Shown here: piece after piece, positions 10,178 to 10,270 of the stretch
Numbering within the stretch: position 1 is the stretch's first letter
Layout: every line of letters starts with the position of its first letter
Source: a virus
Lineage: Duplodnaviria; Heunggongvirae; Uroviricota; Caudoviricetes
Strand: one strand, 5' to 3'
Length of the DNA stretch: 24,913 bases
IMG/VR virus record: IMGVR_UViG_2537562172_000005
The notes under the pieces: generated by a model
Seen by the model: only the letters and a program-made list of their open reading frames with translations
Database searches by the model: none
Told to the model about the DNA's origin: nothing
Program-made: the position numbers and the translations under genes

Positions 10178-10270
10178 GTGCTGGTTCTCAAATGCGCGCT
10201 GGCTATTGCGGCTGTAGTGGCAATTTATTGTCTTGCTATTGTTCTTATGGATCGCCTTTCTGATTGATTT
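10178..10270 (+). CDS. 30-codon hydrophobic small ORF
   Basis: GTG start 5 nt after AGGAGG; VLVLKCALAIAAVVAIYCLAIVLMDRLSD is one predicted TM helix; 70 bp after SIR2-like stop. Confidence 0.3.

Follow-up and report, generated by a model that had tools for sequence, protein, structure and literature searches.

The small ORF at positions 10178–10267 of the window, which is the whole 24,913-nt stretch of the IMG/VR virus record IMGVR_UViG_2537562172_000005, is likely to be a genuine gene for a 29-residue single-pass membrane peptide and part of the backbone that is conserved among Rac/Qin-like lambdoid prophages in Escherichia and Shigella. The comparison of copies showed purifying selection on the peptide, its Shine-Dalgarno (SD) sequence, and its start codon, and the alignments also showed that the unit persists with differing upstream and downstream neighbours. 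The window itself comes from a porcine enterotoxigenic Escherichia coli, in which it forms a Rac/Qin-like lambdoid prophage, and a 1.45-kb comparison with strain P13-6 gave 100% identity. The features of the region are summarized in Table 1.

Table 1. Features in and around the small-ORF block of the window.
Feature	Positions	Strand	Remarks
DUF977 neighbour gene	8300–8707	+	'Ren-like' in one phage annotation; conserved left flank of the cargo hotspot
SIR2_2/DUF4917-type neighbour gene	9148–10107	+	Hotspot cargo, outside the small-ORF unit
5′ leader of the small-ORF block	10125–10177	+	Includes the SD sequence AGGAGG (10167–10172); edge from cross-genome similarity
Small ORF	10178–10267	+	GTG start, 29 codons, TGA; product MLVLKCALAIAAVVAIYCLAIVLMDRLSD
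3′ end of the block	10268–10282	+	Overlaps the hok −35; similarity in hok-less loci ends about here
hok promoter and hok leader/sok region	10275–10471	+	−35 TTGGCG (10275–10280), −10 TAGAAT (10298–10303); ends at the IS insertion point
IS481-family insertion sequence	10472–11566	−	In the hok SD sequence; 6-bp duplication AGGAGA (10466–10471, 11567–11572)
hokD-type toxin CDS (PF01848)	11581–11736	+	IS lies between the CDS and its own promoter/leader

The AGGAGG sequence is separated by the 5-nt spacer TTATC from the GTG codon (10178–10180), and the frame is closed by a TGA codon (10265–10267). The best 17-residue Kyte-Doolittle mean of the product was 2.92, which is consistent with a single transmembrane (TM) helix. 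The peptide carries Tyr-Cys in the middle of this helix, and a short (D/E)R(L/F)(S/G)(D/N) tail follows the predicted helix. The earlier note had described an AGGAGG located 5 nt before a GTG codon and a hydrophobic product with one predicted TM helix, and this description was borne out by the sequence and the hydropathy. The same note gave a 30-codon ORF extending to 10270; the ORF stands, but its size and end do not, as it contains 29 sense codons and 10270 lies 3 nt beyond the stop codon. In a randomised window, AGGAGG followed by a start codon and an ORF of 20–60 aa should turn up about 0.9 times. When a TM-like product was also required, the combination was found in 0 of 300 randomised windows, and the small ORF is its sole instance in the real window. 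No minus-strand ORF of at least 20 aa covers the small ORF in the window. The depositors of phage HannyBb annotated two minus-strand hypothetical ORFs over the small-ORF region (locus L254, 2454–2743); these frames are not open in the window and are likely miscalls.

The coding capacity of the ORF was examined in two samples of loci. Sample 1 was collected using a codon-degenerate pattern over codons 15–25. The GTG codon and the 29 codons were intact in 119 of the 122 copies, the numbers of variable columns at codon positions 1, 2, and 3 were 8, 5, and 19, respectively, and the pN/pS value was 0.30. Sample 2 was anchored solely on the RBS and codons 1–4 as a guard against pattern bias. The frame was open in all 121 loci of this sample, with 29 codons in 120 and 31 codons in one. 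In codons 5–29, 17 of the 31 distinct single-site variants were synonymous, compared with 28.6% expected (binomial p = 0.0019), and none of the 31 introduced a stop codon. All of the replacements were conservative (A/V/T, I/V, M/V/T, D/E, R/H, L/F, S/T, and rare C/Y and C/F). Residues L8, A9, A12, V13, Y17, C18, L19, and L23 and the (D/E)R tail were invariant or nearly so, and the SD sequence (AGGAG or GGGAG) and GTG were conserved despite variable adjacent leader bases. By its length and the signs of selection, the ORF thus qualifies as a putative small membrane protein gene, the class comprising translated ORFs of fewer than 50 codons under purifying selection. The intact frame, the excess of synonymous variants, and the varied neighbours uphold the proposal that the ORF is an independent gene for a small hydrophobic peptide. 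In three loci with QueH cargo, the small ORF was deleted except for its last six codons, which indicates that at least some prophages can do without the gene.

A 34-aa homologue, MSDDISLAMEGALAVVAVVGVYCLVVFLMDRLGN, occupies the same slot, directly upstream of the hokD promoter, in about nine of 80 hok-anchored loci. This protein is recorded as "MULTISPECIES: hypothetical protein [Enterobacteriaceae]" in RefSeq and as A0A0K4X2R1 in UniProt. Its TM core and tail are homologous to those of the 29-aa peptide, whereas it has an acidic N-terminus, an ATG start codon, and its own SD sequence in a different context. DNA similarity between these loci and the window is limited to the coding core (62 nt, 72.6% identity) and the hok −10/transcription start, and the distance from the ORF stop codon to the hok transcription start is 76 nt for the 34-aa form compared with 42 nt for the 29-aa form. 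The dS value between the two coding cores was about 1.17 and the dN/dS value was about 0.24, dN/dS being estimated here from few sites. The positive-inside rule predicts opposite orientations for the two forms. A perfect 22-bp palindrome, CGATATGGGAATTCCCATATCG, which is absent from the window, lies between the 34-aa ORF and the hok promoter in loci of the L178/L186/L198 type and could be an operator or a hairpin.

A further copy of the small ORF, 82% identical, was found about 280 nt upstream of icsP on 135 virulence plasmids (pINV) of Shigella and enteroinvasive E. coli. This copy retains the SD sequence, has ATG in place of GTG at the same codon, and encodes MLVLKGTLAIAAVMTIYCLIVVLMERFSD in 29 codons. 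It is followed by a decayed and truncated hok leader, and the hok CDS is absent. An example is located at 3052–3141 of locus L256, from S. flexneri pINV NZ_CP094988.1, and is unannotated in the PLSDB gene table. Moreover, eleven phage loci contain the block alone (the equivalent of 10125–10282); the gene next to it is a different one, encoded on the opposite strand, and hok is missing. The block was also found in the isolated temperate phages Tritos, Evi, mEp460, and HannyBb.

The distribution of the family was examined at several levels. In the complete genomes of E. coli, a match to the 166 nt around the small ORF was found in 2510 of 5426, and the match covered at least 80% of the query in 1846. 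The block is absent from K-12, whose Qin (relBE-hokD) and Rac prophages lack it, and the 29-aa K-12 protein YnfS is unrelated to the peptide. In a degenerate-pattern scan of a genome collection with one genome per species, the true copies came from E. albertii, E. ruysiae, and S. flexneri alone, apart from three mis-binned MAG contigs; six of the 12 matches were discarded as chance, close to the number estimated beforehand. A phmmer search with the 30-residue window translation against 1.84 billion representatives gave near-identical peptides only, carrying N-terminal extensions from gene callers, and a protein search with a 40-aa read-through variant returned its own cluster only. Because the family was found only in Escherichia and Shigella and the matches are near-identical, the conservation could largely reflect recent common ancestry. 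No Pfam hit at E ≤ 1 was obtained for the 29-aa peptide, and searches of Pfam, NCBIfam, and PHROGs with this peptide and the 34-aa homologue gave at most chance-level hydrophobic matches, to KdpF or ATP synthase subunit c. The small ORF is unannotated in RefSeq/PGAP, and a few GenBank records, including those of REL606 and E. albertii, describe it as "hypothetical" or "membrane protein". A literature search on the peptide itself, hotspots at hokD, DUF977, the region upstream of icsP, and surveys of small proteins returned no direct mention, and the available part of a preprint on CFT073 small proteins describes other ORFs.

The block is about 158 nt long (10125–10282), and its left edge, 18 nt past the SIR2 stop codon, is the point at which similarity between SIR2-carrying and SIR2-free loci begins. 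The region between DUF977 and the small ORF (8708–10124 in the window; equivalents in loci L001–L168) is a hotspot that contained more than 40 classes of cargo. In a survey of 120 IMG/VR prophage loci carrying the small ORF, the distance from the end of DUF977 to the ORF ranged from 24 to 7035 nt among the loci sampled, and in BL21 there is no cargo between the two. Many of the cargoes match PADLOC models of known or candidate defence families (PDC-S15, PDC-S39, PDC-S06, dCTP deaminase, NsnA-like, and Hp1). QueH and transporters were also observed as cargo. With a variable interval upstream of it, the small ORF is the conserved element that comes first to the right of the hotspot, and the SIR2-like gene is one swappable cargo among many, here that of this strain. 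The SIR2-like gene itself gave weak matches to the PADLOC models SIR2, Aga_SIR2, and PDC-S21. Its longest ORF starts at 9076, and the start at 9148 is likelier, considering that the RefSeq product in O55:H7 is 319 aa long and most of the homologues are about 319 aa. Solo SIR2 homologues with 57–82% identity are widespread in Enterobacterales, Aeromonas, Vibrio, and Pseudoalteromonas, and several also match DUF4917.

Downstream of the small ORF, the hok leader/sok region matched Rfam RF01794 at 10310–10477 (109 bits), and 7 nt separate the end of the ORF from the hok −35 hexamer. The ORF is therefore outside the hok leader and upstream of the hok promoter, as the earlier note had placed it. The neighbouring hok CDS matched the HOK_GEF profile (PF01848) with 83 bits. 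The IS481-family element, whose transposase is on the minus strand, severs this CDS from its promoter, the mok/leader, and sok. IS-inactivated chromosomal hok loci of K-12 resemble this arrangement. A weak isrK-like Rfam match just past the hok stop codon (11745–11826; 30.5 bits, below the gathering score of 50; E = 5.6e-4) is probably the 3′ end of the hok mRNA. In other hokD prophages (L170, L171, L177, L178, L180, and L198), the slot before the hok promoter contains other small membrane ORFs, namely a 27-aa peptide MTWPEALTTVGIAMAVALVVYSICRWG, a 59-aa protein with two TM helices, and the 34-aa homologue, and no Pfam, NCBIfam, or PHROGs family was found for the other small ORFs upstream of hok. 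The start codon of MTWPEALTTVGIAMAVALVVYSICRWG overlaps the stop codon of the upstream gene as ATGA. This peptide falls in a 90% cluster with 185-aa DUF551 proteins and may be fused to the C-terminus of a DUF551 protein in some genomes.

The earlier note suggested that the peptide may be a small membrane partner or toxin acting with the SIR2-like protein. A two-gene system in which the peptide is the membrane partner or effector of a SIR2-like defence protein would suit the local layout: the small ORF follows SIR2 on the same strand at a distance of 70 nt and no terminator is predicted between them, so that the two are probably co-transcribed in this strain. The distribution across genomes, however, refutes such a partnership, which we regard as highly improbable. 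The SIR2 gene was found in full in 46 of the 5426 complete E. coli genomes, so that the block is present in about 40–55 times more genomes than SIR2, and it stands beside more than 40 unrelated cargo sets or, in BL21, directly adjoins DUF977. The similarity shared by SIR2-carrying and SIR2-free loci, moreover, starts only after the SIR2 gene has ended. In Serratia, Klebsiella, and Aeromonas, the SIR2 homologues (73–82% identity) occur as solo genes whose chromosomal surroundings are unrelated, and none of them is followed by a comparable peptide. The proposed check of peptide conservation beside SIR2 homologues thus turned out negative at these loci, and the homologues without the peptide, together with the unequal distribution, amount to the lack of co-conservation that the earlier note had named as evidence against the partnership. 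Conserved co-occurrence, which is required of a partner in SIR2 systems of the Thoeris, SIR2-HerA, DSR, and pAgo-SIR2 types, was not observed for the peptide. A different objection is that no functional gene exists and that the DNA is kept as the right recombination arm of the hotspot and/or as upstream DNA of the hok promoter, the open frame being incidental. The end of the block falls within the hok promoter, the family is young and narrow, and the ORF is without RefSeq annotation and deleted in some loci, all of which would fit. The synonymous excess and the 121 loci free of stop codons and frameshifts argue against an incidental frame, as does the observation that the 29-aa and 34-aa homologues are alike only in the coding core at a dS of about 1.2. 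In addition, the frame on pINV has stayed open and acquired an ATG start codon while the hok remnant decays, and the block survives without hok. We therefore consider an incidental frame unlikely.

The other proposal of the earlier note, an independent type I toxin-like peptide, implies a membrane-damaging peptide whose translation is checked by an antisense RNA or a structured leader. The size and hydrophobicity of the product (29 aa, Kyte-Doolittle 2.92 over 17 residues) are typical of such toxins, and it resembles Hok/Gef, TisB, Ibs, ShoB, and DinQ in being a small hydrophobic peptide. The ORF adjoins another type I toxin gene, hok, and a minus-strand promoter-like site (−35 at 10296–10291, −10 at 10272–10267) could give an antisense transcript. 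However, the −35 of this site falls outside the conserved block, and in the alignment the −10 loses the required A at position 2 in BL21 and the hok-less variants (TGAAAT, TGTAAT). No Rfam match was obtained over 10125–10282, the fold was no more stable than that of shuffled sequences (z = 0.64 for the plus strand and 1.0 for the minus strand), and the SD sequence is strong and exposed. A candidate anti-SD hairpin exhibited neither compensatory pairs nor covariation (consensus fold, −3.3 kcal/mol), and no self-contained sigma-70-like promoter was found on the plus strand of the block. Unlike Hok, which has a periplasmic Cys-containing C-terminal domain, the peptide lacks such a domain and is not matched by the HOK_GEF (PF01848) model. 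The marks of a type I toxin-antitoxin locus, namely a conserved antisense promoter or an own promoter with a structured 5′ UTR, were thus not found in the block. As no own promoter, antisense RNA, or SD-sequestering structure was found, a type I toxin is unsupported in the regulatory sense and unlikely. The block was also considered as an RNA element, and this was rejected because neither strand gave a structure signal, an Rfam family, or a covarying anti-SD helix. A functional tie to Hok, in which the peptide would, for example, partner Hok in the membrane, modulate it, or confer immunity to it, is suggested by two regularities: the distance from the start of the small ORF to that of the hok CDS is exactly 307 nt in nearly all loci with enough sequence, and the same slot is filled by the 27-aa, 59-aa two-TM, and 34-aa proteins in other hokD prophages. 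Nevertheless, the block occurs without hok in the 11 phage loci and on pINV, and many hokD loci, such as relBE-hokD in K-12, have no small TM ORF upstream. The loci sampled are phylogenetically non-independent, and the slot pattern accordingly leaves a Hok link with a low probability. By the same measure there is only a slim chance that the slot, occupied by at least three unrelated small-TM families, marks a two-peptide membrane module that would modulate, potentiate, or immunise against Hok.

A gene for a conserved single-pass membrane peptide thus accounts best for the data. Since no promoter of its own was found in the block, its transcription would depend on read-through. The neighbouring genes are all oriented in the same direction, towards Q; during lytic growth the read-through would come from the early rightward operon of the phage, and in a lysogen it would come from whichever cargo gene is located upstream. 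The peptide is predicted to insert in the inner membrane as a single helix, and by analogy with bacterial small membrane proteins it probably acts by helix-helix contact, either with itself or with a membrane protein of the host or the phage. The conserved mid-helix Tyr-Cys and the acidic-Arg tail are candidate contact features. Candidate roles are membrane modulation in lytic growth, superinfection exclusion, and mild membrane toxicity.

Bacterial small single-pass membrane proteins that modulate larger ones include MgtS, AcrZ, KdpF, and PmrR (review, PMC12648545). Like these proteins, the peptide is shorter than 50 aa, consists essentially of one hydrophobic helix with few flanking charges, and belongs to a class that is usually missed by annotation. 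It differs from them in having no sequence similarity and in being encoded by prophages and plasmids rather than by the core genome. Lambdoid phages also carry small membrane "moron" or exclusion proteins, such as gp15 of HK97. The peptide shares with these proteins a small size, a probable inner-membrane location, and an origin in temperate phages of E. coli, whereas it is much smaller than proteins of the HK97 gp15 type, is not similar to them in sequence, and is encoded by a backbone gene rather than a variable moron.

These results correct, by means of distribution data, the guilt-by-association with SIR2. Rather than belonging to a particular defence system, the small ORF delimits a prophage defence hotspot on its right side, and this border can serve in practice as a guide when the DUF977–hokD interval is mined for cargo genes. 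A two-peptide Hok module, if real, would add a protein-level layer to a system thought to be purely RNA-controlled. The ORF would represent an unnamed small membrane protein gene carried by some one-third to one-half of the complete E. coli genomes, and an action of the peptide on Hok or a membrane protein of the host, if proven, would make it a tractable new small-protein case.
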